Of a stretch of DNA of 13,738 nt, positions 1 to 13,738 are shown piece after piece. This stretch comes from an uncultured bacterium (lineage in GTDB: Bacteria; Muiribacteriota; UBA6191; CAZXTJ01). The stretch is from contig CAZXTJ010000169.1 in NCBI GenBank assembly GCA_964643655.1, positions 1-13,738 of the forward strand. Direction: 5' to 3'. The notes beneath the pieces were generated by a model. It was not told the DNA's origin and ran no database searches. It was given only the letters and a program-made list of their open reading frames with translations. A program made the translations under genes and the position numbers. How positions within the stretch are numbered: position 1 is the stretch's first letter; every line of letters begins with the position of its first letter.

Positions 1-1955
1 GCGCCATACTGCCCCAACCACATAAAAGGAACCAAATCACTGTCTATGCGATGAAAGATGAGGTAATACTTCAGCACTACCCAAGGCTGTAAAACTTCAT
101 ACCATTTGGTCAGTTCGTTGACTTTTAAAAGACGAGCAGAAAAGAGCAAGGGTGCCAATGCAGCAGCTTGTTTACCCTGTTGAACGAGATTGCGCTCCTT
201 CAATCGTCTCTCCATTTCCTTCCGTGCTTTTTGTCGGCTCTTGTGCAAACGAGCATTTTCTTGTGACCTAACATTGCGAAACTTCTCCATTCCATCGCGC
301 AAGGAATCTATTTCACCGGCAACAGAAGAGAGAGATTGGAGCAAAGAAACGTTTATTCCTTTAGTGAGACGTCTATTGTCCAAGACAGATAGTTTGGGTA
401 ACAAAGTCTCCAAACGCTCTTTTAATATCTCTACTATTTCAACACGACGTTCACCACCACCGCTCAATCTCGTTACGATGGTAATGGCATGGCAATCGAT
501 GGGCAGCTCGGCCAATTGGACGGACATTGAGTCGTCTTTGTTTCTTTTGGCTGCCAATCTTCTTTCGCCCACAGTCTTGGAGCTAATGAATACCTCTGCC
601 ATTCCTTCTGCATTGGCTTTCCAATGAAGACTCACATCCTTGCCTTCTCGATGTGTACGCGCCGCCAGAAGCTCCAATTTAAAGGCGGCTGTTTTGATGC
701 GCCTAGGCAAGGTCGTTGAGCCATCAGGGAAAACTATCTTCATAGCATAAGGTTGATTGTCAGCCAAACCATCTATGATGACCTCATGCTTTTTTGTTGG
801 CTCTTTTCCATTTTTCCCAGCATATGTGAGTGGTCTGACACCACCTTCCAACTGAACCCACGTTCGATAAGCTTGGTGGCTCTGCCAGCTTATGACCATT
901 CCACCGGGCCTAGAGTTAGTGGCCAACATGAAGACGTCATAGTCCTTTTCCTCTTCGCCTGTTTGGTTGGCGATGAAAACACCCAAAAGTACACCGAGCA
1001 AAATGATGATGGCCAAGAGACCGTAGGTCGACTGTGGACCCTCTTCAGGTGGTGGGAGGCTCTTGTTCACAGCTTCAGCGCTCGTTGAGGAATCCAATTC
1101 AGGAGGAATGGTCGAACGGGTGAAAGGAGTCTTTTTAGCTTCGAGCAATGAACAAAGGGCTTTGCCATCAGCGGGGCGCTTTGTCTGCTCTATTGAGCAG
1201 CACTGCTGCAATATTTCTGCAAATTCGCCAAATATTTCTTTCTTACAAACAATAGGGTTGCAGACACCTGAAGCCAAGGAGCGGATGAGCTGTTTCCCAC
1301 TCTGGCCCTCTCGTTCGAAAGGATGCAAACCCGTGGCTGCGTAATAGACGACCAAACCTGCTTGAAAGACATCTCCTGCAGCCGTGAAGTCTTCTCCTCG
1401 CAAAACCTCTGGTGGAGTAAAACGAAGAGTGCCCAAGACTGCACCTTCAGCAGTGAGCGGAGTCCAGTCGACTGGTCGAACGAGACCAAAGTCGACAAGT
1501 CGTATATTGCCATCTGGTTCCAAAAACACATTGTCAGGCGTTATGTCTCGATGGAGTATTCGCCCATCGTGAAGATAACGCAATGCATCAGCCAATCTGC
1601 AGAGCAGAGTTTTTACTGCTTTGGGTTTTAAGGGACCAGATTGAGGTATGACTTTGGACAATGGGGAACCACGAAGAAATTCCATAACGAAATATGGCGG
1701 CGATACATCCAAATCAGCCTGATAAATGTTGACCAACTGAGGATGACGAAGACCTGCCAAGACTGAGACTTCTCTATCCAATCGTGCTCGGGCTTCGGGA
1801 TTTTTTGCATAATGGTCGTGGAGAACCTTGATGGCCACATCTCTTTTGAGCTCATTGTCTTTCGCTCGATAAACGGTACCCATGCCCCCTGAACCAAGGC
1901 ATTGGTTAATGACATACCGGCTGCCATCGCCTACCTGAGGGAAATTCTCAGTCAC
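1..1955 (-). CDS. Hanks-type Ser/Thr protein kinase, single-pass membrane protein with a large extracytoplasmic domain. The GTG start is inside the window; the C-terminus runs off the window start, so the CDS is partial.
   Basis: Translating the minus strand by hand gives one uninterrupted frame from 1955 down to base 1 (about 651 codons, no stop). The ORF track omits it because it never reaches a stop in-window. N-terminus reads V/MTENFPQVGDGSRYVINQCLGSGGMGTVYRAKD. Kinase motifs seen: Gly-rich loop GSGGMG, VAIKVL, catalytic loop LHRDITPDN, VDFGLV, TPPEV. A transmembrane helix (LLAIIILLGVLLGVFIA) is encoded around + coordinates 960-1015. Beyond it lie a beta-rich region and a charged coiled-coil-like region. 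A GTG at 1955..1953 directly follows an in-frame TGA. All + strand ORFs listed in 190..1631 are antisense artefacts of this gene. Confidence 0.88.
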   Translation of the reverse strand, partial: MTENFPQVGDGSRYVINQCLGSGGMGTVYRAKDNELKRDVAIKVLHDHYAKNPEARARLDREVSVLAGLRHPQLVNIYQADLDVSPPYFVMEFLRGSPLSKVIPQSGPLKPKAVKTLLCRLADALRYLHDGRILHRDITPDNVFLEPDGNIRLVDFGLVRPVDWTPLTAEGAVLGTLRFTPPEVLRGEDFTAAGDVFQAGLVVYYAATGLHPFEREGQSGKQLIRSLASGVCNPIVCKKEIFGEFAEILQQCCSIEQTKRPADGKALCSLLEAKKTPFTRSTIPPELDSSTSAEAVNKSLPPPEEGPQSTYGLLAIIILLGVLLGVFIANQTGEEEKDYDVFMLATNSRPGGMVISWQSHQAYRTWVQLEGGVRPLTYAGKNGKEPTKKHEVIIDGLADNQPYAMKIVFPDGSTTLPRRIKTAAFKLELLAARTHREGKDVSLHWKANAEGMAEVFISSKTVGERRLAAKRNKDDSMSVQLAELPIDCHAITIVTRLSGGGERRVEIVEILKERLETLLPKLSVLDNRRLTKGINVSLLQSLSSVAGEIDSLRDGMEKFRNVRSQENARLHKSRQKARKEMERRLKERNLVQQGKQAAALAPLLFSARLLKVNELTKWYEVLQPWVVLKYYLIFHRIDSDLVPFMWLGQYG

Positions 1956-3849
1956 CCTTCAACATCCCGAGCTTCTCGAGTTTTTTATAGAGAGTCGTAC
2001 GGGACATACCAGTCTCTCGAGCTACTGCACGAAGTTTGCCCTGAGAGCGACGAAGAGCGCGTTCGAGGAACACTTTGTCAAAAGCTTCGCGTGCTTCTTC
2101 GTATTCAGGTGGCAACTCTTCTACAGCTAAAGCAGGACCAGCTGAATGGCTGACAAAGGAAGAGCTTCCGCCACCTGCAGCACCAATGGGTAAACTGGCT
2201 GCTGAAACGACTTTGCCTCTTTCGATGACAACGGCTCTTTCGATGGCATTGCGTAATTCGCGGATGTTACCAGGCCATGCATAGGTCTTCAGTGCCTTTT
2301 GCGCATCTTTGGAAAACTTTTTCAGTTTGCGACCAAATCGAGTGGCAAAGGTTTGCAGAAAGTGTTCGGCTAGGGGCACCACATCTGCACCTCGTTCGCG
2401 CAGCGGTCTCAATCTCAGTCTGAAGACATTGACGCGATAATAAAAATCTTGTCTGAAGGTGCCATCTTGCACCTGCCGTTCGAGATCGGCATTTGTAGCG
2501 CAAACCAACCTGATGTCCAGAGGGATGTCATCTTGGCCACCGAGGCGCCTAATCGTTCTCTCTTGAAGGACACGAAGCAATGTAACTTGAACGTCCAAAG
2601 GTAACTCACCAATCTCGTCCAAGAACAAAGTGCCACCAGAAGCAAGTTCGAAACGACCCAATCTCTTTTCCAAAGCACCAGTGAAGGCACCTTTTTCCGC
2701 ACCAAAAAGCTCTGCTTCTATGATGTCTCTAGGCAGAGCAGCACAGTTCACGGCAATGAATGGACCACTAGAGCGACTAGAACGCAAGTGCAATTCGCGA
2801 GCAACCATCTCTTTGCCTGTGCCTGTTTCACCTGTGATTAGCACAGTAATGTCTTGTGCAGCTGCAGCGTCAATGTGTTCGATGAGTTCTTTTGAAGCAG
2901 GACCATCACCTGTGACGAATACATTGCTGTCATTTTCCAAACGCCTCATGGCAGCAATTGTTGTCGTAGCTTCTACCAGTTGGCGTCTTGTCTGTTGGGC
3001 CGCAACGAGCTCTGCAGCGAGGCCAGTCACAACCTCGAAGAATGGCTGCTGTTCTTCAGTCCATGGCCTATCGGTACGTTTTTTATCGAGATAGATGACA
3101 CCAACTGCACGTTGATTGGCCAACAAAGGCGCACATAATATGGCGCGCGGCATGGTGGAAACGGCTAGGCTAGGAGCACCTGCACAACGAGAATCTCGCA
3201 GAGAATCTGCAATTGCCAAAACTTCTTTTTCTTCTAGAGCGTTGGCACAGACAGTCTTTGATATTGCCTCGCACTCTTCACCGTCGACCAATCCACGAGC
3301 AGCAACTCGTACCAAAGTATGGCGCTGTCCTTCCAAGAGGACAAAACCTCGCTCTGCGTCTACAAAATCGATGAGTCCATCTAGAAGACGCTCGAGAACC
3401 TCCTGCGGTTTTGAAGAGGAACGCAGCCCGTCAATAAAAGCTGAGAAGGGCTGCCAATCAGTGGACTTTTTCCCGCCACTGTTCAACTGAATATCTATGG
3501 CGCTTTCGGCAGTGATCTTTTTGGCACGAAGAGCATTGGCCGAAGCCAAAGGGCTGTCGCTCATTTGTATTTGCAAGTCGTCGATGACAACGACATCCCC
3601 TAAGTGAAGAGCGGCATCTCTCACTTTTTCGCCATTGAGATAGGTACCCATGGAGCTCTTGAGGTCGCGAATATGATATTTGCCACCTACCTGGTAGATC
3701 TCGGTATGTCGGCGAGAAACACGTGTACCAAAGAGCATGACGTCGCAGTCGTCGCCCTTGCCCAAAACAGTACTTGCTGAAGTGAGCTTAACAGCGTTAA
3801 AAAAACGTTTCGGTGAATCTGTCGTCCCAATGAGGAGCCACCAAACCAC
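1948..3849 (-). CDS. Sigma-54-dependent transcriptional activator (enhancer-binding protein) with N-terminal FHA domain, central GAF domain, AAA+ sigma-54 interaction domain and C-terminal Fis-type HTH
   Basis: 633-aa ORF. FHA hallmarks are present: VSRRHTEI (SxxH) and TYLNGEKV (NG). GAF-like region spans about residues 150-300. AAA+ motifs: Walker A GETGTGKE, GAFTGA motif (EKGAFTGA), Walker B LFLDEIGEL. C-terminal HTH: RAVARETGMSRTTLYKKL. The GTG start at 3849 has AAGGAA 6-11 nt upstream. Its stop overlaps the downstream kinase start (GTGACTGA). Confidence 0.92.
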   Translation of the reverse strand: MVWWLLIGTTDSPKRFFNAVKLTSASTVLGKGDDCDVMLFGTRVSRRHTEIYQVGGKYHIRDLKSSMGTYLNGEKVRDAALHLGDVVVIDDLQIQMSDSPLASANALRAKKITAESAIDIQLNSGGKKSTDWQPFSAFIDGLRSSSKPQEVLERLLDGLIDFVDAERGFVLLEGQRHTLVRVAARGLVDGEECEAISKTVCANALEEKEVLAIADSLRDSRCAGAPSLAVSTMPRAILCAPLLANQRAVGVIYLDKKRTDRPWTEEQQPFFEVVTGLAAELVAAQQTRRQLVEATTTIAAMRRLENDSNVFVTGDGPASKELIEHIDAAAAQDITVLITGETGTGKEMVARELHLRSSRSSGPFIAVNCAALPRDIIEAELFGAEKGAFTGALEKRLGRFELASGGTLFLDEIGELPLDVQVTLLRVLQERTIRRLGGQDDIPLDIRLVCATNADLERQVQDGTFRQDFYYRVNVFRLRLRPLRERGADVVPLAEHFLQTFATRFGRKLKKFSKDAQKALKTYAWPGNIRELRNAIERAVVIERGKVVSAASLPIGAAGGGSSSFVSHSAGPALAVEELPPEYEEAREAFDKVFLERALRRSQGKLRAVARETGMSRTTLYKKLEKLGMLKGD

Positions 3850-3965: not shown

Positions 3966-4508
3966 ATGAAAATGACCATTGAAGAACGGTTGACTCAGCT
4001 CGAGAAGAGCAATCTCAGATGGCAACGTTTGACTGCAATACTCTGCCTTCTTCTGGTCACTCTGGGCATTATGGGAGCAAAACATATTGGCCGGACAAAT
4101 GTTGCCATTGGCCAATTGCGGCTGCTCAACAGAGAAGGCAAACTTCGTGCAGTCCTTGGTGTAACCAAGAATGATGCTGCTTATCTGGCTTTGCGCGACA
4201 AAGAGGGAAAAGTACGTTGTCATTTGAGCCTCGACAAAAAAGGAACTCCGAGCCTAACGCTGAATGATGAAAAGGGAGAGAAACGGTGCATTCTCAGTCT
4301 CTTTGACAAAGGCTGTAATCCCAGTATGATTTTTTATGATGGCGAACAAAAACGTCGTCTCTCATTGACTACAGTGCCCCCTGCCCTCATTTGCAACAAT
4401 CACAATGGCAAACCTAGAGCAGTTCTAGGCGTGAGCAAAACAGGTGCCGGAGCATTTTCCTTGGAAGACGTTCATGGTCGTCCCATAGTCTTCAAACGTC
4501 TTAAATGA
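3966..4508 (+). CDS. Hypothetical membrane-anchored protein built from tandem repeats of about 22 residues (consensus approximately L-x-D-K-E-G-K-x-R-x-x-L-S-L-x-K-x-G-x-P-S-L)
   Basis: 180-aa ORF with AAAGGT about 9 nt upstream of the ATG. N-terminal coiled segment, then a hydrophobic helix LTAILCLLLVTLGIMGA. After that come 5-6 degenerate repeats: GKLRAVLGVTKND / GKVRCHLSLDKKGTPSLTLND / GEKRCILSLFDKG / QKRRLSLTT / GKPRAVLGVSKTG. I recognise no known family. Confidence 0.6.
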   Translation: MKMTIEERLTQLEKSNLRWQRLTAILCLLLVTLGIMGAKHIGRTNVAIGQLRLLNREGKLRAVLGVTKNDAAYLALRDKEGKVRCHLSLDKKGTPSLTLNDEKGEKRCILSLFDKGCNPSMIFYDGEQKRRLSLTTVPPALICNNHNGKPRAVLGVSKTGAGAFSLEDVHGRPIVFKRLK

Positions 4509-4514
4509 TTCTCG

Positions 4515-4847
4515 CTATTTTGTTGGAGGAGTCACTTTTGGAGCTGTTTTAGAACCTTTGGGAAGAGGAATATTAGGCAGTATTCCTTTTTTCTGGAGCA
4601 ACTGAGCAGCTCTTTTGACTTTAGGATCTTTCAATGCTGCCATAATTTGAGGCAAACCAACGCCTGGCTTGAGCAAACCAGCTTGCTGAATGATTACTGC
4701 AGCTTGTTTGACCTGTGGATCTTCTGAATGTAATGCCTGAGCTATGGCCGCTCTAATCTGGTCGGGATTAAAACCAAAGGCAATAACGTTAGAAGCGCTC
4801 AGGAGCAGGAGGGCCACGGCCAAAAGTAGTCCAGTGCGTCGTAACAT
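4515..4847 (-). CDS. Small secreted protein with signal peptide and two HEAT/PBS-lyase-like repeats (DPxVKxAAxxLQxxGxL)
   Basis: 110-aa ORF. Strong RBS: AGGAGG lies 7 nt upstream of the ATG at 4847. N-terminus MLRRTGLLLAVALLLLSASNVIA is a typical Sec signal peptide. Repeats: DPQVKQAAVIIQQAGLL and DPKVKRAAQLLQKKGIL. Pro/Lys-rich C-terminal tail. It sits 96 nt downstream of MVP on the same strand, with no obvious terminator hairpin between them. Confidence 0.65.
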   Translation of the reverse strand: MLRRTGLLLAVALLLLSASNVIAFGFNPDQIRAAIAQALHSEDPQVKQAAVIIQQAGLLKPGVGLPQIMAALKDPKVKRAAQLLQKKGILPNIPLPKGSKTAPKVTPPTK

Positions 4848-4943: not shown

Positions 4944-7478
4944 TTATTCACCACTCTCTTCTTGCTCTTTTTCCTCTTCAGTCAAGGCTTTCAGCCCTTC
5001 AGCCAAAGGACCAGTGCCTGCTATCATTTTGCTCAATGCATCCATACCTCCTCGGCCCAAGAGCAAACCAAGGCCTCCTGTGGCTTGAGGAAGATGTTCG
5101 GCCAGTTTTCCTGCCAAAGCTTGATTTCCATGCGTTTTTATCGCTGCCACGAGGTCTGGTTGTATGGCTTCGAAACGTTTCACGAAAGCCTCTGCTTGAG
5201 CACCGAGTTCCTGTAATCGCAGCACCATTTGAGCTTCCTCGAACTGTATCTGTTGGTCTCTCGCGCTCTTTTGTCGGGCTAATTCAGCTTTTGTAATTTC
5301 GTCTCTCGTTGTCTGAGAAGCCAGACGACCGCTGAGCTCAGTCTCTGTTTCCCGTGACTGAGCATTGATTTTGGCCAAATCGATACCCAATTGCAGATTC
5401 ACCTCTTCTTGTTGCAATAAGAGCTCTTTTTCTTTGGTGGCTGCTCTTGCCTGGGCAAGTTCTTGGCGAATGCGTTCCTCTTCACGAACCGTTTCCAATT
5501 CTTTTCGTGCCATAGCCAAACGGAGGGACTGTTCCACTGAATCCTTCTGACTAGAACGAACCATCTCTGCGATGGCTGAGTCGCCAATCTCCAATTTGCC
5601 AAACTCAACGTCATAAACACGCATGCCATTTTCTGGGAACAATCGACCTGGACGTTTACCTTCGACAGTTTCTCCCAAGATTGCATTTCTCAAGATATCG
5701 ATGTAATTCGTGTAAAACTCCTGAACGCCATACTTTTTCACTACATTGGCCACGAGTGATCGTGTGTGATCTGTGAGGAATTTCACGTAATTCTCTACAT
5801 CGAACCATTTGCTCTTGTCCCCTTCGAAGTCAACTCGGAAAGAGAGTGGTATTCGCACTGAGACAAAGTCTCCAGTTTCCGCAGCAATCAAATCAGAGAC
5901 CTTGTTTGCTTTGACACGCAGATAAACATCTTTTCGCAATTGATAGTCAGACTTTGGAGTTCCTGTTGATAGCTCGATGACCTCTGGTAACTCGTCATAT
6001 TGCAACAACACTGTCTGTGGTCCTTCAATAACTCTGCTTTCACCAGTTTTTGAAACAACTTTGATGGCATAGCCCGTATGTACTCGCACAGTAACGGCAC
6101 CATCATATTTTGTTTTCAGCTGTATGGAACGAGGTGGGACGTATTCGTTGGAACGAGTGAACTCGTCAGCCGTCAATTCGGGCTCTTCACCACTTCCAGT
6201 TTCATCGTTATTGAGTAAATTGATGCCTTTTTTGCTTCTTGCTTTCCTGGCAGTAGGATTGAAGATTCCTTCCAATCCCAAAAGGGAGAGATTGTGTGAA
6301 ACTGCCTCTTCATTACCGGGATAAAGTAACTCGACGATGGGGATGGGCAGAGTCCGTCTGACGATGACTTCATATCTGGGATCAGGCAAGTACATTTTGG
6401 GACCCAAGACCAACTTTACGTCACCAGTCTCCTTGGAGAGCACATAACGGGCTTCTCCTTTGGGTATTGCCACAGCCTGCTGTAGCAGCTGGTCACCACC
6501 ATATTTGATGATTGCATGTTCAGGACGTGGATAATATATTTTCTGGTCTTTTCCCGTAATGAAGAGCTCTTCACCCTCAGCATATTTTTTGCCATCTTCC
6601 TCATAGGGTTTGATCACTTTTACATACAAACCACGGTGTGTCTCGAGCTCAATGGCCTTTATCTTCCTCTCACCTTTGTGAGTTTCATGGAAAGACTGAG
6701 TTGGCCGAGGAAAAACGACGGCTGGTCCATTGACATACTCTTTGGTACCATTCTCGTCTATGAGAATACAGGTTTCCAGCTGTTCGAGAGTGACGGCGTC
6801 GCGTACATATTTACCACACTCAGGAACGACTTCCATTCCCGTAGGTGGAATGTAAAAAGAAACCTCTGTGCCTTTCACAACGAGAAGCTGACCTGTAACC
6901 AAATCTGGTGTGGAAGCATCGGGGAAAATTTCACCCTTGTTTTCATCTGTAATCTCTTCAGTAGAATTGGTCTGTTTTTTGAGGACTGCATTCTTCCAAT
7001 TTGATTTGGCCACTTCACCATTAATGACGCGAACGACTAAATATTGGTTAGAGCGGAGAATGTGGCCATCTAGGCAAGTGGCTGATTGACCTGGGTAAAG
7101 AGCAAAAGTTGCGGGACCTGGTATATTGACTCTTCGCCCCATTGCCAGTTCCACAGAGCCCTGTTTTCCTCTTGATGGGTGGCGATGTTCGTCTTCTTCA
7201 ACAGGATTTTGTAAAACGATATATTGCCCCTCTTTTGCTGCAGGCCACATTGTTACTGCTGATTTGAGGAGGCAACGTTGGAATGATTGAGTTTTGCTAT
7301 CAAAACGAACTGGATTGTCTGTCTCACCAATACTCGTCTTTGTTGGTCCTACGTGCACTTCCACAGTACCATCGGCGCCATTTTGCACGAGGGCTTGTTC
7401 TCCTTGAGCCAGAACGAGATCGCCGCCTCGCTCTCTCATTTCGCGAATATCCCTGTCATACTCTCTGTTGCTTCCCAT
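4944..7478 (-). CDS. mvp: Major vault protein (MVP) homolog: vault shell protein with N-terminal vault repeat domains, a shoulder (SPFH-like) domain and a C-terminal cap-helix coiled coil
   Basis: The maximal ORF is 4944..7505 (853 aa), which begins with TTG. An ATG at 7478 preceded by GAGAGGA (about 8 nt) is the more likely start. The product aligns by eye along its full length to eukaryotic MVP. N-terminus: [39 protein letters not shown] against human [30 protein letters not shown]. Repeated vault-repeat-like units of about 55 residues follow. Shoulder: [42 protein letters not shown] against [62 protein letters not shown] against [20 protein letters not shown]. A long Q/E/A/R-rich cap-helix follows. 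C-terminus: [19 protein letters not shown]...[11 protein letters not shown] against [20 protein letters not shown]...FGLLGMGPEG. Acidic C-terminal tail. Confidence 0.85.
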   Translation of the reverse strand: [844 protein letters not shown]

Positions 7479-7526
7479 TTTGTTGTCCTCTCTCGGTGCT
7501 GCCAATATTGTCTTTTCTTGTTCATA

Positions 7527-7542
7527 TGCAATCTTCTCGCCG
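7527..7542 (-). promoter_or_regulatory. Weak sigma-54-like -24/-12 candidate upstream of MVP
   Basis: The minus strand reads cGGCGAgaagaTTGCA: GG/GC spacing is correct and the -12 TTGCA is perfect, but the -24 hexamer matches only 3 of 6 (CGGCGA against TGGCAC). It lies 48 nt upstream of the ATG at 7478. If real, it argues against the TTG start at 7505. Confidence 0.25.
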
Positions 7543-7640
7543 ACAAGTGACTATCTTGTACTGATGGGCCTTTACACGATCTCAAACAATGCATCCGTAA
7601 CAGTTCTTTACGTTTTCCAGCACTTCGTTACGTTTACAAT

Positions 7641-7691
7641 TTGACAATAAGGAGAGGATCTTTGACATCTTGGGTCAAAGTCGCCTAGTTT
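7641..7691 (+). promoter_or_regulatory. Sigma-70-like promoter candidate for the nitroreductase/flavoprotein operon, with a palindromic operator-like element overlapping its -35 and spacer
   Basis: Two TTGACA hexamers (7641..7646 and 7662..7667). The second is followed after 18 nt by TAGTTT (7686..7691). The palindrome CTTTGAC-N7-GTCAAAG (7660..7680) spans that -35 and spacer. An AGGAGGG RBS and the ATG at 7717 lie downstream. Confidence 0.35.
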
Positions 7692-7716
7692 GGAACCTTC
7701 AGGAGGGAACAATCAT

Positions 7717-8217
7717 ATGGACGCGATCCTGACAAGACGCAGCATAAGAAAATTCACAGAGCAAGAAGTTACTGAGGAACAGTTGACTTCCATATTAAAA
7801 GCAGCAATGGCGGCTCCATCAGCTGGTAATGCCCAACCCTGGCAATTCATCGTCATTCGAGACAAGATAACCATGGAGGCAGTGACGGGTTTCCATCCCT
7901 ACGCCAAAATGTTGCCCGAAGCTTCAGTTGCAGTTGTCGTATGCGGAGATCTTTCATTGGAGAAATTCGAAGGTTTCTGGGTACAAGACTGCTCGGCAGC
8001 AATTCAAAACATTCTTTTGCAAGTAACAGCCTTGGGGCTTGGGGCCGTGTGGCTCGGAGTACATCCCATTCAAGAACGTGTCGTCGGTGCCCGAGAACTC
8101 TTTGGTATTCCCACCAATGTCATTCCTCTGGCCATCATTCCTATTGGGTATCCAAATGAAAGTAAAGAATCCGTCGACAGATATCAAGCTGACAGAATTC
8201 ACGATGAACGTTGGTAG
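7717..8217 (+). CDS. Nitroreductase-family flavoprotein (NAD(P)H:FMN oxidoreductase fold)
   Basis: The ORF track starts it at 7690, but AGGAGGG lies 8 nt upstream of the ATG at 7717, giving MDAILTRRSIRKF. Canonical nitroreductase N-terminus (RRSxRxF, then EEQLxxILxAAxxAPSAGNxQPWxF). About 166 aa. Confidence 0.85.
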   Translation: MDAILTRRSIRKFTEQEVTEEQLTSILKAAMAAPSAGNAQPWQFIVIRDKITMEAVTGFHPYAKMLPEASVAVVVCGDLSLEKFEGFWVQDCSAAIQNILLQVTALGLGAVWLGVHPIQERVVGARELFGIPTNVIPLAIIPIGYPNESKESVDRYQADRIHDERW

Positions 8218-8232
8218 TTGGGGAGGAAAGAG

Positions 8233-8811
8233 ATGAAAGTCGTAGCATTCAACGGAAGCCCACGCAAAAACGGCAATACTAACGAATTGTTGCAGGTCCT
8301 TCGCAGCCGTCTCGAAGAAGCCGGCATAAAATACGAGCAAATTGATATCTGCAAATCTCATCCTCGTGGTTGTACAGCCTGTTATGCCTGCGTGAAAAAT
8401 CAGGACAAAAAATGTGTCATCGCCACAGATCCACTCAATGAGTGGGTGGAAAAGATGATAGAAGCAGACGGTATCATTCTCGCCTCACCTACATATTTCT
8501 CTAACGTAACTTCAGAGATGAAGGCCCTCATCGATAGAGCTGGTTTAGTGGGAAAAATCAATGATTGTGCTTTTAAGCGCAAAATTGGTGCAGCCGTCGT
8601 TGCTGTTCGACGAGCTGGTGCATTGCCCACCTTTGACGCCATGAACCACTTCTTCCAAATCAACCAAATGATGGTTGTCGGTTCTAGCTACTGGAACCTT
8701 GGCGTCGGTCGCGAACCAGGTGAAGTCAAAGGCGATGAAGAAGGCTTGCAAACAATGAAGGATTTGGGCGACAACATGGCTTGGTTGATCAAAAAAACCA
8801 AGGGTGAATGA
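8233..8811 (+). CDS. Iron-sulfur flavoprotein (Isf-like) of the NADPH-dependent FMN reductase/flavodoxin-like family, with a compact CX2CX2CX7C cluster motif
   Basis: GGGAGG lies 7 nt upstream of the ATG at 8233 (MKVVAFNGSPRKNGNT...). The track's 8218 start is in-frame but lacks an RBS. Flavodoxin-like_2 signature: GSPRKNGNT...ADGIILASPTYF. Cys cluster: C-KSHPRG-C-TA-C-YA-C-VKNQDKK-C. It starts 15 nt after the nitroreductase stop, so the two are a probable operon. Confidence 0.8.
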   Translation: MKVVAFNGSPRKNGNTNELLQVLRSRLEEAGIKYEQIDICKSHPRGCTACYACVKNQDKKCVIATDPLNEWVEKMIEADGIILASPTYFSNVTSEMKALIDRAGLVGKINDCAFKRKIGAAVVAVRRAGALPTFDAMNHFFQINQMMVVGSSYWNLGVGREPGEVKGDEEGLQTMKDLGDNMAWLIKKTKGE

Positions 8812-8815
8812 TTTG

Positions 8816-10768
8816 TTAGTCGGCCATGTAAGTTTTCAGTAGCGGAGTCAATCGATCATATTCTGATTCTAAGACAGAAAGCGTTTCTGGAGCGCCATCC
8901 AAACATCGGTGTCGCCCCATATCACATAAACGACTGGCCATATCCCCTACTCCGTGGGCACCAATATATCCTGCTGCACCTTTGAGTGAATGAGCCGCTT
9001 CATGCATCTCGTCAACATTGGCCCGCCCCACAGCAATTCTCAACCTCTCTATTCTCTGAGGAGCATCAGAGAGAAATGTGCTAATGAGACGATGAAGCAA
9101 TGAACGATTGCCATTGACATGACGTAGGGCTTCTTCAGAATCAAATGGAACTGAGACTCGTTTTTTACAAGATGTAGTCTCAATCTTAGCCTTTTCTGAG
9201 TTTTCCTCGCCTGGTCCTGCAGCCTCTTCAGTGGCAATGATGAGCTCTTTGGCAATGACAGGTTTGTTGAGAATGGAGTCGGCTCCAGCTGCAATAATTG
9301 ATTCTCTGCGGCGCATATCTGTATTGGCCGTTACGGCAATGATGGGCGTATAACGACTCATGGTAGATTCCAGCTCACGCATTCTCAGAGTCGTTTGTAC
9401 ACCATCGAGAACAGGCATGGAAAGATCCATCAAAATGATATCAAAAACTTCTCTTTTAAAGAGATAGAGAGCTTCTGCTCCATTCTCGACGACAGAGACC
9501 TGATGGCCACGAGCATTCAAAATCTCAAAGGCAAACTCACTATTGACTGGATGATCTTCAGCAATGAGAACTTTGAGCGGACGATGACACTCTTTTTCCA
9601 CTTGGCCTGTGACCAAAACCACATCTTCCATTTTTGGTGGATGATCCAATACTTGCTCAAAGGTTGTAATCAACTCCATACCTATGATTGGACCAATGAG
9701 AAGATGAATGTGGTCCAGTCTCAAAAGAGCATCCATGATTTCCATAGCTTTTTCTGGACAGAGGGAAATTATCAAAGGTAAGCCAGGTGAGATTCGGCGT
9801 ATCTCGTTGACCATATCACGGATATTTTTCGCATGGATACCAACGCCATCAATATAAGCTGCACCATATTGCTGTCCTTCCACTTTGCTACATGCCAATA
9901 AAGTTTTTACCTCTCGCAATGAACCCACAAAAGTTGATGTTGCCCCGCGGAAGACGAGAAGTTCATCAATCCATTGGCGATGGGATGCACAGTGCGAGAC
10001 TATCATGGTTTTATGACCAACGAGAGAGTTGCGTTCAACCACTTCTCCGTAGTTATTTTCAAACTGAGTCAGTCTTATCTCATATCGCAAGTCATGCTCT
10101 CTTGCAGAAAAACCTGTTGGGACCTTTGCAAACAAGGGTGACGAGATTGGCAGAGCAAAATCACTGATCAGACGAGCTCCATTGTCATCACATTGAACAC
10201 TGAACAATATCTCTATTTCTTTGGCGCTCTCTAGGTGCATGATTGTGGATATTGCCTTTTTTAGCTCTCCTGCCAGGTTTGGTGCACTCACAGTCACATT
10301 TGTGGCCGTTGGAGAAGAAAAACTTGGACGCAAAATTTTTCCATGTTCACAGCCATCAGGTGCCAAGGACCAGATGACCTGCCCCACGAGACTATCCAAT
10401 CTTTGCGGCGCACAAGAATAATCCATTGTAGAAAGAAGAGCTTGCGATAGATTTGTCATGGCTTTGGAGAAGATGCGAGACTCCCAAAGAATGTCTCTGT
10501 TGATAGCTCCTTGAGCAAGTTTTGTCATTGTCAGCAGTGCAGACTTCGTTTCAACGTCCAAACCCTTCCTCTTTTTATCATGTCTCTTCTTCTTTGCATG
10601 AGTTACAAAAAACTTACTCCTCTTGAAAAATGCCACTGCCGTGGCTATGGCACAGCAGGTCATAGAAAGGGCAAATGGTGAATTGTAGAGTGCTATGGCG
10701 AAAGCCACGAGGGAAATTGTCATGAGCAACATGCGCTCGAGTTTTGTGCTCTCACGAGAGATTGTCAT
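8816..10768 (-). CDS. Membrane protein with receiver (REC) and C-terminal histidine phosphotransfer (HPt) domains. The N-terminal and central region has no recognisable histidine-kinase H-box or ATP-binding boxes. Putative phosphorelay intermediate.
   Basis: 650-aa ORF. AAAGGAG lies 5 nt upstream of the ATG at 10768. Two N-terminal hydrophobic segments: MLLMTISLVAFAIALY and ALSMTCCAIATAVAFF. Intact REC at about residues 398-510: KVLIAEDH...ILMDLSMP...AVTAN...LNKP. HPt at about residues 545-640 with HSLKGAAGYIGA. Residues 240-390 look like a degenerate pseudo-receiver. The gene ends 4 nt from the convergent flavoprotein gene. Confidence 0.75.
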   Translation of the reverse strand: MTISRESTKLERMLLMTISLVAFAIALYNSPFALSMTCCAIATAVAFFKRSKFFVTHAKKKRHDKKRKGLDVETKSALLTMTKLAQGAINRDILWESRIFSKAMTNLSQALLSTMDYSCAPQRLDSLVGQVIWSLAPDGCEHGKILRPSFSSPTATNVTVSAPNLAGELKKAISTIMHLESAKEIEILFSVQCDDNGARLISDFALPISSPLFAKVPTGFSAREHDLRYEIRLTQFENNYGEVVERNSLVGHKTMIVSHCASHRQWIDELLVFRGATSTFVGSLREVKTLLACSKVEGQQYGAAYIDGVGIHAKNIRDMVNEIRRISPGLPLIISLCPEKAMEIMDALLRLDHIHLLIGPIIGMELITTFEQVLDHPPKMEDVVLVTGQVEKECHRPLKVLIAEDHPVNSEFAFEILNARGHQVSVVENGAEALYLFKREVFDIILMDLSMPVLDGVQTTLRMRELESTMSRYTPIIAVTANTDMRRRESIIAAGADSILNKPVIAKELIIATEEAAGPGEENSEKAKIETTSCKKRVSVPFDSEEALRHVNGNRSLLHRLISTFLSDAPQRIERLRIAVGRANVDEMHEAAHSLKGAAGYIGAHGVGDMASRLCDMGRHRCLDGAPETLSVLESEYDRLTPLLKTYMAD

Positions 10769-10802
10769 GAGGCTCCTTTCATTTTCGAACTTTTAAAGGC
10801 TA

Positions 10803-10818
10803 TGCAATCTCTCTGCCA
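10803..10818 (-). promoter_or_regulatory. Sigma-54 (-24/-12) promoter candidate for the membrane REC-HPt gene (8816..10768), divergent from the one above
   Basis: The minus strand reads TGGCAgagagaTTGCA: GG and GC have correct spacing and the -12 TTGCA is perfect. The predicted TSS is about 24 nt upstream of the ATG at 10768, with a AAAGGAG RBS in between. Confidence 0.55.
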
Positions 10819-10929: not shown

Positions 10930-10947
10930 TTGCGCATTTTGCGCATT
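10930..10947 (+). repeat. Perfect tandem direct repeat TTGCGCATT x2, abutting and overlapping the first base of the -24 element
   Basis: TTGCGCATTTTGCGCATT is visible directly. Each copy contains the palindrome TGCGCA. The last T is T1 of TGGCAC. Confidence 0.5.
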
Positions 10948-10962
10948 GGCACGAAGCATGCA
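10947..10962 (+). promoter_or_regulatory. Sigma-54 (-24/-12) promoter candidate for the response-regulator/pseudo-HK operon
   Basis: TGGCACGaagcaTGCA: the -24 element TGGCACG is perfect, and GC is at the exact -12 spacing (aTGCA against TTGCA). It lies about 46 nt upstream of the ATG at 11008, leaving room for a 5' UTR of about 35 nt with a GAGGAGG RBS. Confidence 0.6.
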
Positions 10963-11007: not shown

Positions 11008-11604
11008 ATGAAAATATTGATAGCCGATGATGATGCCATGTCCCGCCAACTGCTCAGTGGTTTGGTCACTGAGTGGGGTCACGAACCAGTTACGGCCGAA
11101 AATGGTGAAGAAGCTTGGCAAATTCTGACTGAGCAAAAGCTGCAGTTCATCATCGTAGATTGGATGATGCCCCGCCTAACGGGAGTAAATCTCTGTGAAA
11201 GAATACGAGCAAGTGAACTTGATCAATATATCTACATCATTCTTCTCACTTCACGAAAAGATGCAGATGAAATCGTGACCGGTCTCAATGCAGGTGCAGA
11301 TGATTATGTGACAAAACCCTTTGATGCTCGGGAGCTGGAAGTGCGCCTCAATGTTGGTATTCGTGTACTCGATTTGGAGCGCAGATTAGAGGAAAGAGCT
11401 CGCCAAGCAGAGGAACAGCTTCAGCAGATCAACAAGCTGGAAAGCCTCATTCCAATTTGCTGTGAATGTCGACAAGTGCGCGATGACAAGAATTACTGGC
11501 ACAAAGTAGAAACTTATCTAGCAAAACGCACACCAGCAAAATTCACACACACCTTGTGTCCTCATTGCTACAACAAAGCTATGGCCGAGATTGAAGCAGC
11601 TTAA
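11008..11604 (+). CDS. Response regulator: canonical receiver domain, then a coiled-coil linker and a C-terminal Cys/His-rich zinc-ribbon-like domain
   Basis: 198-aa ORF. RBS GAGGAGGAAG lies just upstream. REC residues: ADDD, IIVDWMMP (phospho-Asp), LLTS, VTKPF. C-terminus: IPICCECRQVRDDKNYWHKVETYLAKRTPAKFTHTLCPHCY (C-C-x-C ... C-P-H-C). The stop TAA overlaps the next gene's ATG (TAATG). Confidence 0.85.
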   Translation: MKILIADDDAMSRQLLSGLVTEWGHEPVTAENGEEAWQILTEQKLQFIIVDWMMPRLTGVNLCERIRASELDQYIYIILLTSRKDADEIVTGLNAGADDYVTKPFDARELEVRLNVGIRVLDLERRLEERARQAEEQLQQINKLESLIPICCECRQVRDDKNYWHKVETYLAKRTPAKFTHTLCPHCYNKAMAEIEAA

Positions 11605-13738
11605 TGAAAAAAAGGTCTATTCATAGGTGGTTGGACGAAGTAGCTCGCTCTGGAGACACAAAATCCTGTTTGGCAGTTCTAAAAGAACTAGTCAACTCAC
11701 TACCTGACTACTTCGAACACAGCAAGGAGACTGCTGTCAGACTCATCCATGATGACCAAAATATAGAAACACAAAAATTTTGCAACACAAAATCCAAACT
11801 GCAGTTTCCCATTTGTGATGGAAACAAAGTACGAGGTTCTTTGGAAGTCTGCTATCTTCAAGACTTTCCTCTGGCCGACGAAGGTCCCTTTAGAGAAGAA
11901 GAAATTGAGATAGTAAAAACAGCTGCCCGCATTGCTGGTTTTGCCTTAGAACGTTGTCGAATGTTTGCAGAAAGACATCAACTGAAGGCTTCCGCAAAGG
12001 GTTATGCCCACACGAGTGGTCAAGTCATTGCTGCACTTCGTTATCAAATGAGAGCTCCCCTCAATGGCATCTTGGGTTTTGCAGAAATGCTTCTTGAAGA
12101 TCAGCTCACTCAAGAGCAAAGAGATGCTGTCAATGCCATTCAATCTGGTGCCGACTCCGTCCTCGACATAACAGATTCGATTTTGGATTATGCTCGTCTC
12201 GATGCTGATGAATTGGAACTGGACAAGAAAGAATTCTCTCTTTCTGCCTTAGTGAATGGGCTCACAGCTTCAATCGAAAAACGAACAGGTCGTTTGATTG
12301 ATATCAAAAGTGAGCTGCCACCCAAACTGAGTTCAGTTATCGGTGATAGCAGACGCTTGCGGGAGGCTCTGGAGAGCTTGGTTTCTTATTGCGCTTCATT
12401 GGATGTGGAAAACACAACAAAAGCCAACATCTACGTTGAACAAACTGACGATACTCTTGACCTCAACATGGAGGTCTATGGTCCACATGTAATTCACTCT
12501 TCCCTTTCTGAAGAGCAATTGTTCAATCCCTTCGAAGGAAAAGCGGAGTATGACATTCCAGAGAAGGCTGCCTTGGAATTGGCCATTGCACGTGGTTTGT
12601 CACGACAAATGAATGGCGATCTCATTCTGGACAAAGTGGATGACAAGGTCATTTTTCGCCTTTTCGCAAGATTACCACGACCTTCAGCCGAAGAAAATGC
12701 TGGGGCAAATCATGCACCTGACGCATCATTAAAAATACTCGTTGCAGATGACAGTAAAGTCATTAGGGTCTTGGCCTCGAAGATATTGACGGGTCTGGGC
12801 CATCAAGTTGATTTGGCTGAAGATGGTGCTCAAGCCCTTGCCAAAGGTGCTGAAGACAAACACGATCTCATTTTGATGGATCTGAACATGCCCAACATGT
12901 CAGGTTTTGAAGCTACGAGAGCCCTGCGAGAGAAAAAAATCAAAACACCCATAGTCTCAATCTCATCTTCTGCTCTGGCAGAGGATAGACGTCAAAGCTT
13001 GGAAAGCGGCATGAGTGGTTTTGTCACTAAACCATTCAAACGTAACGATCTTCGTGCCGTCCTTTCCGAACACTGTGGTGTTCAGTCTCAAGCAGATAAA
13101 AAAGAAGAACCACTCAAAGTACTCATCATCGATGATGACAAAGTCATGCGAAAACTAGTGCGTATGGTCGTGAAAAGAACCTATCCCAATGCTGTTGTCA
13201 AAACTGCAGATGATGGATTGGAAGCTTGTGCACTCTTGGGTAGCTTCTTACCTCGATTAGTCATTACCGACATCATCATTCCTGGTGTAGATGGTGTTGC
13301 TGTAGTCCGCTTCATCAATGAACGAGAACGGTACAAAAACACAGCTGTCGTCGCCATGAGTTCCCTTGGAGTCGATGATGATAGAGTGAGAACTCTCAGA
13401 AGACTGGGTGCAAAACAAATACTACCTAAACCCTTTGAGTGGAATGTCTTTTCACAGGCTGTCAGTGCTGCACTGAATGATGATTCTCTTTCAGCAGATA
13501 CCTTGGAAACAGAGAAACCCAAAATTGTCCCCATGCCCATTCCCTTTGACGCAGGCACAACAGAAGTACCCATTTGGGACATCAACAAAGGATTACGCTC
13601 TGCCGGCGGTTGTTCTAGTCTCTTGAGTTCAGTCGTTGGTGTATTTCTCGATGATGTTCGAGTACGTTTTGATGCCCTCGTTGATGGTATGGAGCAAGAG
13701 GACCTTTCCTGTGTACAAATGCAATCACACACCTTAAA
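11604..13738 (+). CDS. Hybrid sensor histidine kinase-like protein with a degenerate (probably catalytically dead) kinase core, two receiver domains and a C-terminal HPt domain. Partial: the 3' end runs off the window.
   Basis: A hand-translated open frame runs from the ATG at 11604 (overlapping the response-regulator stop) to the window end, with no stop. The ORF track omits it. N-terminal 130 aa are GAF/PAS-like. The HisKA-like helix reads AALRYQMRAPLNGILGFAEMLLED. The Tyr codon at 12042..12044 sits where the phospho-His of the SHELRTPL motif belongs. HATPase_c-like region: IGDSRRLREALESLVSYCASL (N-box Asn replaced), G1 box EVYGPH, G2 box AALELA in place of GxGLGL. REC1 at about 12732..13080 (KILVADD...LILMDLNMP...TKPF). 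REC2 at about 13117..13450 (KVLIIDDD...LVITDIIIPGVDG...LPKPF). HPt begins near 13560 and ends at the window edge inside the QSHTLK motif. Confidence 0.8.
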   Translation, partial: MKKRSIHRWLDEVARSGDTKSCLAVLKELVNSLPDYFEHSKETAVRLIHDDQNIETQKFCNTKSKLQFPICDGNKVRGSLEVCYLQDFPLADEGPFREEEIEIVKTAARIAGFALERCRMFAERHQLKASAKGYAHTSGQVIAALRYQMRAPLNGILGFAEMLLEDQLTQEQRDAVNAIQSGADSVLDITDSILDYARLDADELELDKKEFSLSALVNGLTASIEKRTGRLIDIKSELPPKLSSVIGDSRRLREALESLVSYCASLDVENTTKANIYVEQTDDTLDLNMEVYGPHVIHSSLSEEQLFNPFEGKAEYDIPEKAALELAIARGLSRQMNGDLILDKVDDKVIFRLFARLPRPSAEENAGANHAPDASLKILVADDSKVIRVLASKILTGLGHQVDLAEDGAQALAKGAEDKHDLILMDLNMPNMSGFEATRALREKKIKTPIVSISSSALAEDRRQSLESGMSGFVTKPFKRNDLRAVLSEHCGVQSQADKKEEPLKVLIIDDDKVMRKLVRMVVKRTYPNAVVKTADDGLEACALLGSFLPRLVITDIIIPGVDGVAVVRFINERERYKNTAVVAMSSLGVDDDRVRTLRRLGAKQILPKPFEWNVFSQAVSAALNDDSLSADTLETEKPKIVPMPIPFDAGTTEVPIWDINKGLRSAGGCSSLLSSVVGVFLDDVRVRFDALVDGMEQEDLSCVQMQSHTL

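Follow-up and report, generated by a model that had tools for sequence, protein, structure and literature searches.

How can a protein take part in a phosphorelay when no functional histidine kinase is evident in it or beside it? This question is raised by a 13,738-nucleotide (nt) stretch of DNA from an uncultured bacterium of the phylum Muiribacteriota (contig CAZXTJ010000169.1 of assembly GCA_964643655.1), referred to here in its entirety as the window, in which a minus-strand gene encodes the 650-amino-acid (aa) protein studied here (the target). An earlier note, made from the sequence alone, had described this protein as kinase-less, with a membrane anchor, an unknown region partly resembling a receiver, a true receiver (REC) domain, and a histidine phosphotransfer (HPt) domain. 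We consider it moderately likely that the target is a membrane-anchored, kinase-dead descendant of a hybrid kinase with the order DHp (dimerization and histidine phosphotransfer), CA (catalytic and ATP-binding), pseudo-receiver, REC, and HPt, and that it acts as a phosphotransfer intermediary. Rather than a new kind of system, it represents an unusual form of a relay protein type that is already known; its family has two members in public data.

The coordinates of the open reading frame are exact, with an ATG start at 10768 and a stop at 8816 (minus strand, 650 codons), and an AAGGAG Shine-Dalgarno sequence lies at 10772-10777, four bases upstream of the start codon. The target is a real gene: a 615-aa ortholog (P0002), 60% identical overall, is encoded in a fully syntenic locus (L003), with its genes in the same order, on a 75-kb contig from another metagenome. 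A pseudogene was ruled out: the frame is intact in two genomes, and nonsynonymous divergence (dN) is 0.135 to 0.16 in REC and HPt and 0.63 in the region between anchor and pseudo-receiver, with synonymous divergence (dS) saturated.

At the N terminus, Kyte-Doolittle windows above 1.4 are confined to aa ~13-49, after which a Lys/Arg-rich stretch follows. The two hydrophobic helices seen here by hydropathy bear out the proposed membrane anchor. They are joined by a three-residue turn that is invariant in the ortholog, and helices at aa 5-29 and 31-61 are present in both of our structure models, one built with and one without kinase sequences in the alignment. The segment is thus a membrane hairpin with both ends cytoplasmic and no extracytoplasmic domain. 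The start called for the ortholog probably misses nine codons: translation from an in-frame ATG at L003 position 9974 (9974-10001, plus strand) yields MTLRLLIPIMITLIIVG... and restores the full first transmembrane helix, as in the window protein. A HAMP domain, considered for aa 60-115, is unlikely in view of the absence of a Pfam HAMP match, the length of the two helices (~24 and ~21 aa), the 4-residue turn between them, and the alignment of this segment to DHp.

An intact and conserved REC-HPt module

The C-terminal part of the target carries both phosphotransfer domains named in the earlier note, each above its Pfam cutoff and with its catalytic residues intact. Response_reg (PF00072) covers aa 400-511 with 80.6 bits (cutoff, 30.2; E = 1.2e-22), and Hpt (PF01627) covers aa 561-640 with 53 bits (gathering cutoff, 24.6; E = 4.2e-14). 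The receiver active site is complete: E404/D405, D448, T480, and K502 correspond to CheY D12/D13, D57, T87, and K109, and D405, D448, and K502 are invariant in 81 aligned sequences. H593, a residue that hardly varies across the alignment, lies within the canonical H-x-L-K-G motif (here H-S-L-K-G). Structurally, both domains match hybrid-kinase receivers and HPt proteins. Among 248 relatives identified for the REC-HPt part, nearly all are complete hybrid kinases that have HisKA and HATPase_c in the slot that in the target is occupied by a 185-aa segment, here called region X.

Relatives of the N-terminal part are scarce. An exhaustive phmmer search of 1.84 billion representative proteins found a single relative of aa 60-397, the ortholog P0002, and a word-indexed search with aa 1-397 returned nothing beyond the target itself. 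Scanning for further family members gave generic REC-HPt matches only in GTDB genomes, no further member in metagenomes (using an alignment of region X and the pseudo-receiver), and generic kinases only when the scan was anchored on the neighboring pseudo-kinase.

Identity between target and ortholog rises along the protein, from 35% in the anchor and 35.5% in region X to 63% in the pseudo-receiver, 84.5% in REC, and 82% in HPt; in the same order from region X onward, dN is 0.63, 0.33, 0.135, and 0.16, with synonymous sites saturated. The least conserved part is a DHp-like hairpin within region X (35% identity, dN 0.66). Other proteins of the locus are about 55 to 88% identical between the window and L003. 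Because of this gradient in identity and dN, we conclude that selection preserves the REC-HPt module, with region X relaxed but not neutral.

A pseudo-receiver ahead of the module

None of aa 1-397 was matched by Pfam, even at E ≤ 10, and the pseudo-receiver within this part thus escapes detection there. It was recognized by hhalign, which aligned aa 240-392 with the first receivers of relatives of the type HK-REC-REC-HPt (HK, histidine kinase) at a probability of 96.9% (E = 1.3e-10; 139 columns). BLASTP alignments to about 20 proteins of this type begin at aa 244-253 and extend to the C terminus. The (βα)5 pattern is clean in both structure models, with a predicted local distance difference test score (pLDDT) of ~90 in the model that includes kinase sequences. 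When mapped onto CheY, S258/H259, within the string MIVSHCASH (aa 255-263), align with the acidic DD pair, C337 stands for T, and G359 stands for K; D307 is retained, so that four of the five active-site residues are missing. The claim of a receiver fold without its acidic pocket at aa 240-390 is therefore well supported, and the ortholog shows the equivalent pattern (S/K, D, C, G). A pseudo-receiver has been defined as a receiver homolog missing at least one of the five active-site residues (PMC12632262). By that definition, aa 245-385 is a pseudo-receiver, though not an aspartate-less one. The domain may predate the loss of the kinase, since a relative with an intact kinase (P0029) already carries the same kind of pseudo-receiver ahead of REC-HPt.

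Region X as a probable relic of a kinase core

Region X had no match in Pfam (E ≤ 10), NCBIfam, or a PDB profile search (E ≤ 10). A bona fide HisKA/HATPase_c core within aa 60-390 was found neither by Pfam at E ≤ 10 nor by the PDB profile search, and the description of the protein as kinase-less stands. In tests aimed at the individual kinase elements, no Pfam HisKA match was obtained at E ≤ 10, and the phospho-His column was V72 or a gap in every alignment; there was no HATPase_c match either. Alignment by MAFFT with 79 relatives placed region X collinearly on DHp and CA. Deletions in this alignment fall on Ser-His of the H box, on NAxKFT (half of the N box), and on GGTG of G2, and also on the DHp loop, the F box, and the lid. 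D195-N-G197 falls on the G1 box and is all that is left of it. Since the phospho-His is replaced by V72 and the N-box Asn, F box, ATP lid, and G2 are deleted, the target is predicted to be kinase-dead, that is, unable to autophosphorylate.

Several lines of evidence suggest that this region descends from a kinase core. Its alignment by hhalign to kinase cores is weak but collinear, with a score of 20.1 compared to 14.1 ± 2.8 for column shuffles (9 of 200 shuffles reached 20.1). With a kinase-core hidden Markov model (HMM; hmmsearch), only 6 of 1,000 shuffles reached the real score of the ortholog's region X. Conversely, a profile of region X gave higher scores to 112 real kinase cores than to the same sequences reversed (Mann-Whitney P = 6e-4) or to shuffles (P = 5e-10); in the best local alignments, aa 72-117 consistently fell on HEIRTPMN...IND and V72 on the phospho-His. 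MAFFT gave the same register. Remnants of kinase motifs in this register include E73, E96-x-R98-x-F100, A110-L-L, D116, A-P-N-L at the position of GDxxRL, and D195-x-G197 at G1. Helices predicted without kinase sequences in the alignment (aa 64-89, 97-112, 120-134, and 166-177) coincide with those of the kinase-like model.

Other observations weigh against the kinase descent and relay role proposed here. The homology of region X to kinase cores is weak (hhalign probability, 0.4 to 1.9%), and in the kinase-core HMM test the target's own region X did not rise above shuffles (114 of 1,000). Nor are the kinase targets independent sequences, being related among themselves. The structure model of region X (pLDDT 80 to 84 at aa 121-205) was built with kinase rows in those columns and is thus coerced rather than independent; the model built without them is uninformative (pLDDT 40.6). 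The family consists of two members, so that the conservation arguments amount to one pairwise comparison. Finally, the candidate donor kinase considered below was seen in the relative's contig alone, the window contig ending before that position. Because of the marginal statistics, the inter-related kinase targets, and the model coerced by its alignment, we rate the reading of region X as a fossil DHp with a truncated CA as likely and no higher: aa 60-244 is probably a decayed kinase core and not a foreign domain.

Alternatively, region X could be specific to this lineage and unrelated to kinases, an input or docking domain that took the place of the kinase core and has a sensory or partner-binding function of its own upstream of the pseudo-receiver. 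The failure of Pfam and PDB to match the sequence at any threshold used, the single relative among 1.84 billion representatives, and the shuffle-level score of the target in the kinase-core HMM test would all be expected of such a domain. Likewise, hhalign found no detectable similarity between region X and the core of the neighboring pseudo-kinase, and a dN of 0.63 with saturated dS indicates that some purifying selection persists. Yet three alignment methods agree on one collinear DHp-CA register with motif remnants, real kinase cores outscore reversed decoys, and region X fills exactly the HisKA-HATPase_c slot of the relatives, with helix positions that match the kinase-like model even when predicted without kinase sequences. 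We therefore regard an unrelated domain as unlikely. If region X is indeed a kinase relic, its decay is so advanced that profile libraries miss the core.

A candidate phosphodonor beyond the edge of the contig

Downstream of a divergent response regulator gene, the window contig ends inside the gene for a second hybrid protein, a pseudo-kinase whose own catalytic core is degenerate. In L003, the genes beyond this pseudo-kinase encode two more Ser/Thr kinases and then, as the third gene, a canonical PAS-PAS-HisKA-HATPase_c-REC hybrid kinase. No HPt was found in the 763 of 822 residues available for this kinase, and the missing 59 residues are too few to hold one; the kinase would thus depend on an HPt in another protein, such as the target or the pseudo-kinase, both of which have one. 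The earlier statement that the locus has no functional kinase is true of the window and does not extend to L003, where the canonical kinase lies three genes beyond the pseudo-kinase. Since this position is beyond the point where the window contig ends, the apparent absence may be a contig-edge effect. The suggestion that the phosphate source lies elsewhere fits such an HPt-less hybrid kinase, as far as the L003 contig shows. Two cautions for annotation follow: annotated simply as "REC + HPt," the target would show neither its fossil core nor its pseudo-receiver, and the apparent lack of a kinase at a locus can be an artifact of the contig edge.

Conserved sigma-54-type promoters in the divergent intergenic region

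The 239-bp intergenic region between the target and the divergent response regulator contains two sigma-54-type sites, each pointing at its gene (Table 1). With the consensus TGGCAC-N5-TTGCW and one mismatch allowed, 3 sites were observed in the whole window compared to 0.71 expected. The target is preceded by -24 GG and -12 GC promoter elements at the correct spacing. In L003, the positions of the target and regulator promoters carry TGGCAGGGAGATTGCT and TGGCACGAACAATGCT, respectively. Besides these two promoters, a central block is the sole long conserved island in the alignment of the two intergenic regions, the remaining spacer having diverged, and its 23-nt core is unique to that position in both loci. 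This block is a candidate activator-binding (enhancer) site. A sigma-54-like site, AGGCACAATAGTTGCT (L003 2345-2360, minus strand), also lies 56 nt upstream of the PAS hybrid kinase gene of L003. The third site of the window, CGGCACCTGTTTTGCT (4434-4449, minus strand), probably arose by chance, being located inside the 180-aa open reading frame, ~585 nt upstream of the activator gene, and not conserved in L003.

At the start of the window, a Ser/Thr kinase gene overlaps the end of the gene for an FHA-GAF enhancer-binding protein by 8 nt, which suggests that the two are cotranslated. The earlier note had allowed that this pair might provide the input to the relay. The two conserved sigma-54-type promoters in the divergent region instead suggest that the enhancer-binding protein controls transcription of the relay genes and is unlikely to donate phosphate; presumably, it is itself governed by the cotranscribed Ser/Thr kinase. 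FHA-domain sigma-54 activators paired with Ser/Thr kinases occur in myxobacteria, and the predicted coupling from Ser/Thr kinase to FHA-type activator to relay transcription is conceptually not new.

Proposed mechanism and competing explanations

On the favored reading, the target would be tethered to the inner membrane by its helical hairpin, without a sensing loop, and would receive phosphoryl groups in trans from a genuine kinase, for which the best candidate is a PAS-PAS-HisKA-HATPase-REC kinase without HPt of the type seen in L003. Phosphate could enter at D448, or directly at H593, and would leave from H593 to a receiver, most simply that of the divergent response regulator, which is the likely terminal phospho-acceptor. 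The target's own REC would be either the entry point or a competing sink, and the relic core and pseudo-receiver could serve as a scaffold for dimerization, docking, or regulation. Expression would start from the sigma-54 promoter, probably driven by the FHA-GAF enhancer-binding protein of the locus, which appears to be cotranscribed with the Ser/Thr kinase. In this picture, the anatomy of the domains, the lack of catalytic residues, the gradient of conservation, and the conservation of the promoter motifs are shown, and the origin of region X, the phosphodonor, the direction in which phosphate flows, and the activator are inferred. If it is true, the target represents a second, independent solution of the kind known from RcsD, in which a hybrid kinase that is no longer catalytic persists as a phosphotransfer hub tethered to the membrane.

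A different role for the same protein would be that of a negative regulator or phosphate sink, in which its REC drains HPt domains (its own or that of the pseudo-kinase) or its relic DHp forms dead heterodimers with a real kinase, in the manner of RetS with GacS; the protein would then damp the pathway instead of carrying it. The receivers of the locus (four REC and one pseudo-receiver) and its two HPt domains exceed the needs of a linear relay, both hybrid proteins are kinase-dead, and phosphorelays are reversible (PMC12632262). A pure sink could dispense with its HPt, however, and this domain is as conserved as REC (82% versus 84.5%); the DHp-like hairpin that heterodimers would require is the least conserved part of the protein (35%, dN 0.66). 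We consider a mainly negative role doubtful on these grounds.

More speculative is the idea that the fossil core and pseudo-receiver form a new ligand- or redox-gated switch on an HPt relay without a dedicated kinase, responding to quinone, as in the CikA precedent, or to a cyclic dinucleotide, as in the ShkA precedent, with a Ser/Thr-kinase/sigma-54 circuit and a His-Asp relay joined in one module. By analogy, the quinone option draws on the conserved neighboring genes for an FMN reductase and a nitroreductase; the proposal as a whole is improbable. That the relay is fed without any histidine kinase, by small donors such as acetyl phosphate acting on D448 or by direct action of the locus Ser/Thr kinases on these proteins, seems to us very improbable. 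No functional kinase is visible in the window, and both genomes have Ser/Thr kinases flanking the locus (one in the window, three in L003), but a canonical HPt-less hybrid kinase stands beside the same gene set in L003, and the overlap of Ser/Thr kinase and FHA sigma-54 activator, with sigma-54 promoters before the relay genes, explains the association at the level of transcription. Scarcely credible is an atypical autokinase that uses another histidine, such as the conserved juxtamembrane H63, with a minimal nucleotide site around D195-N-G197: H63 and a CDD-x-GARL motif are invariant in both orthologs, but H63 lies in a Lys/Arg-rich linker (pLDDT < 50 at aa 61-63) outside any H-box context, the protein lacks the N-box Asn that binds Mg-ATP as well as the F box, lid, and G2 glycines, and there is no HATPase_c signal.

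Comparison with known systems

In function, the closest known protein is RcsD (YojN) of the enterobacterial Rcs phosphorelay, in which a kinase fossil likewise serves as a scaffold and the HPt is the working part. RcsD is a membrane pseudo-kinase without a phospho-His, with a pseudo-receiver-like domain termed alpha/beta/loop (ABL) and an essential HPt that is fed by the hybrid kinase RcsC and passes phosphate to the response regulator (PMC13614576). It differs in having a large periplasmic domain, a PAS-like domain, and no true receiver, whereas the target has no periplasmic domain. Aligned by hhalign, the target and Escherichia coli RcsD share only ~39 HPt residues (E = 0.045), and the NCBIfam search of the target gave no match to an RcsD model. 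With similarity confined to the HPt and no periplasmic domain, membership in the RcsD family was ruled out; the resemblance is one of analogy or parallel decay.

In anatomy, the closest protein is ShkA of Caulobacter crescentus (PDB 6qrj), which has the order DHp-CA-pseudo-receiver-REC in common with the target. ShkA was the top Foldseek match of the target model (E = 8.1e-17; 496 columns), a match that over region X depends on the model having been built with kinase sequences; the match by sequence covers target aa 332-508. The ShkA pseudo-receiver is a regulatory module that binds cyclic di-GMP (PMC7010744, PMC12632262). ShkA differs in being soluble, in being active as a kinase, and in having no HPt, for which it uses ShpA; the target has a membrane anchor and an HPt of its own but no longer has the catalytic motifs.

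The REC-HPt module is of the type found in the HK-REC-HPt proteins BarA/GacS, ArcB, and TorS. In NCBIfam, BarA (aa 229-613 aligned to model positions 514-881 at E = 1.9e-35), ArcB, and TorS matched best, at scores far below the family cutoffs; BLASTP gave 27% identity to E. coli BarA over REC-HPt, and the GacS D1 receiver was among the top structural matches. Membership in the BarA/GacS family (NF008318) was ruled out, the match reaching 122.2 bits against a cutoff of 890 and covering model positions 514-881 only. In contrast to proteins of this type, the target has no H1 site, ATPase, or periplasmic or HAMP input. The target also differs from LuxU, ShpA, HptB, and Ypd1, small soluble single-domain HPt shuttles, in that its HPt shares one polypeptide with a membrane anchor, a fossil kinase core, a pseudo-receiver, and a receiver.

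Within the locus, the neighboring pseudo-kinase resembles the target in its dead core (His to Gln; degenerate N, G1, and G2), its intact receivers, and its HPt, and this state is kept in both genomes. It differs in that its HisKA is still recognized by Pfam, it is soluble, and it has two true receivers, ~32% identical to that of the target, and no pseudo-receiver. The pseudo-kinase is a hybrid protein at an earlier stage of decay, and if the favored reading holds, the target and this adjacent paralog could illustrate how phosphorelay pseudo-kinases arise and persist.

Neighboring genes

The window encodes, besides the target, a Ser/Thr kinase, the FHA-GAF activator, two small proteins, a protein resembling the major vault protein (MVP), a nitroreductase, and an FMN reductase, with the response regulator and the pseudo-kinase in divergent orientation (Table 1).

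Table 1. Positions of genes, protein domains, and regulatory sites in the window and of the candidate donor kinase in L003
Feature	Positions	Strand	Remarks
Ser/Thr protein kinase, cut by window start	1-1955	-	
FHA-GAF-sigma-54-AAA+-HTH enhancer-binding protein	1948-3849	-	Pfam Sigma54_activat E 2.2e-68, FHA 3.8e-15, GAF 1.5e-13, HTH_8 7.9e-08
180-aa protein, N-terminal hydrophobic helix, no family match	3966-4508	+	69% identical in L003, syntenic
110-aa probable secreted protein, no family match	4515-4847	-	89% identical in L003, syntenic
853-aa protein, MVP shoulder and repeat domains	4944-7505	-	
Nitroreductase and NADPH-dependent FMN reductase genes	7690-8811	+	Convergent, end 4 nt from target stop; arrangement kept in L003
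Target coding sequence, 650 aa, stop codon included	8816-10768	-	Open reading frame list and translation; 60%-identical ortholog P0002 in syntenic L003
HPt domain, aa 546-650	8819-9133	-	Phosphotransfer His H593 in HSLKGAAGYIGA
Canonical receiver, aa 398-513	9230-9577	-	E404/D405, phospho-acceptor D448, T480, K502
Pseudo-receiver, aa 245-385	9614-10036	-	(βα)5 receiver homolog; S258/H259, D307, C337, G359
Region X, aa 60-244 (185 aa)	10037-10591	-	Probable relic DHp hairpin (aa ~67-115) and truncated CA/ATPase (aa ~120-240)
Membrane hairpin, aa ~13-49	10622-10732	-	Two hydrophobic helices, turn Y28-x-S30-P31-F32, no periplasmic domain
Sigma-54-type promoter TGGCAGAGAGATTGCA (TGGCAG-N5-TTGCA)	10803-10818	-	~35 nt upstream of target start; one mismatch
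Central block, ~46 bp, inverted repeat TTCAC-N9-GTGAA	10848-10893	.	Candidate enhancer site between divergent promoters
Sigma-54-type promoter TGGCACGAAGCATGCA	10947-10962	+	Before regulator/pseudo-kinase operon; one mismatch
Response regulator, REC and Cys-rich C-terminal domain	11008-11604	+	Pfam REC E 1.3e-26; 88% identical in L003
Pseudo-kinase, cut by window end	11604-13738	+	His-to-Gln HisKA and degenerate CA, then two RECs and an HPt
PAS-PAS hybrid kinase	L003 1-2289	-	All catalytic motifs

The MVP-like protein has more than 6,000 bacterial homologs in many phyla. Beyond the two syntenic loci, the relative closest to it (53% identity) is encoded at positions 10001-12607 of L085, a 338-kb contig that looks like a jumbo phage, with many small codirectional genes and genes for dUTPase, NUDIX, and PD-(D/E)XK proteins. 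As an anchor for finding more loci of the target family, the MVP-like protein led to this unrelated phage-like contig. Next to the target, the two reductase genes make a redox or quinone link to the pseudo-receiver conceivable by analogy with CikA, whose pseudo-receiver is the quinone precedent (PMC12632262).

In the divergent operon, the pseudo-kinase was detected by Pfam as HisKA (E = 1.1e-14), with HATPase_c only at E = 0.041. Its H box reads RYQMRAPLN, with Gln in place of His, both in the window and in the L003 copy (6823-9135, minus strand), in which the architecture is conserved and the full protein ends in an HPt. The ATG of the pseudo-kinase overlaps the stop codon of the response regulator (TAATG), and the two genes are thus predicted to be translationally coupled. 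At its C terminus, the response regulator carries a Cys-rich domain of ~60 aa (aa ~140-198, IPICCECRQVRDDKNYWHKVETYL...HTLCPHCY) that has two CxxC pairs and no Pfam match.

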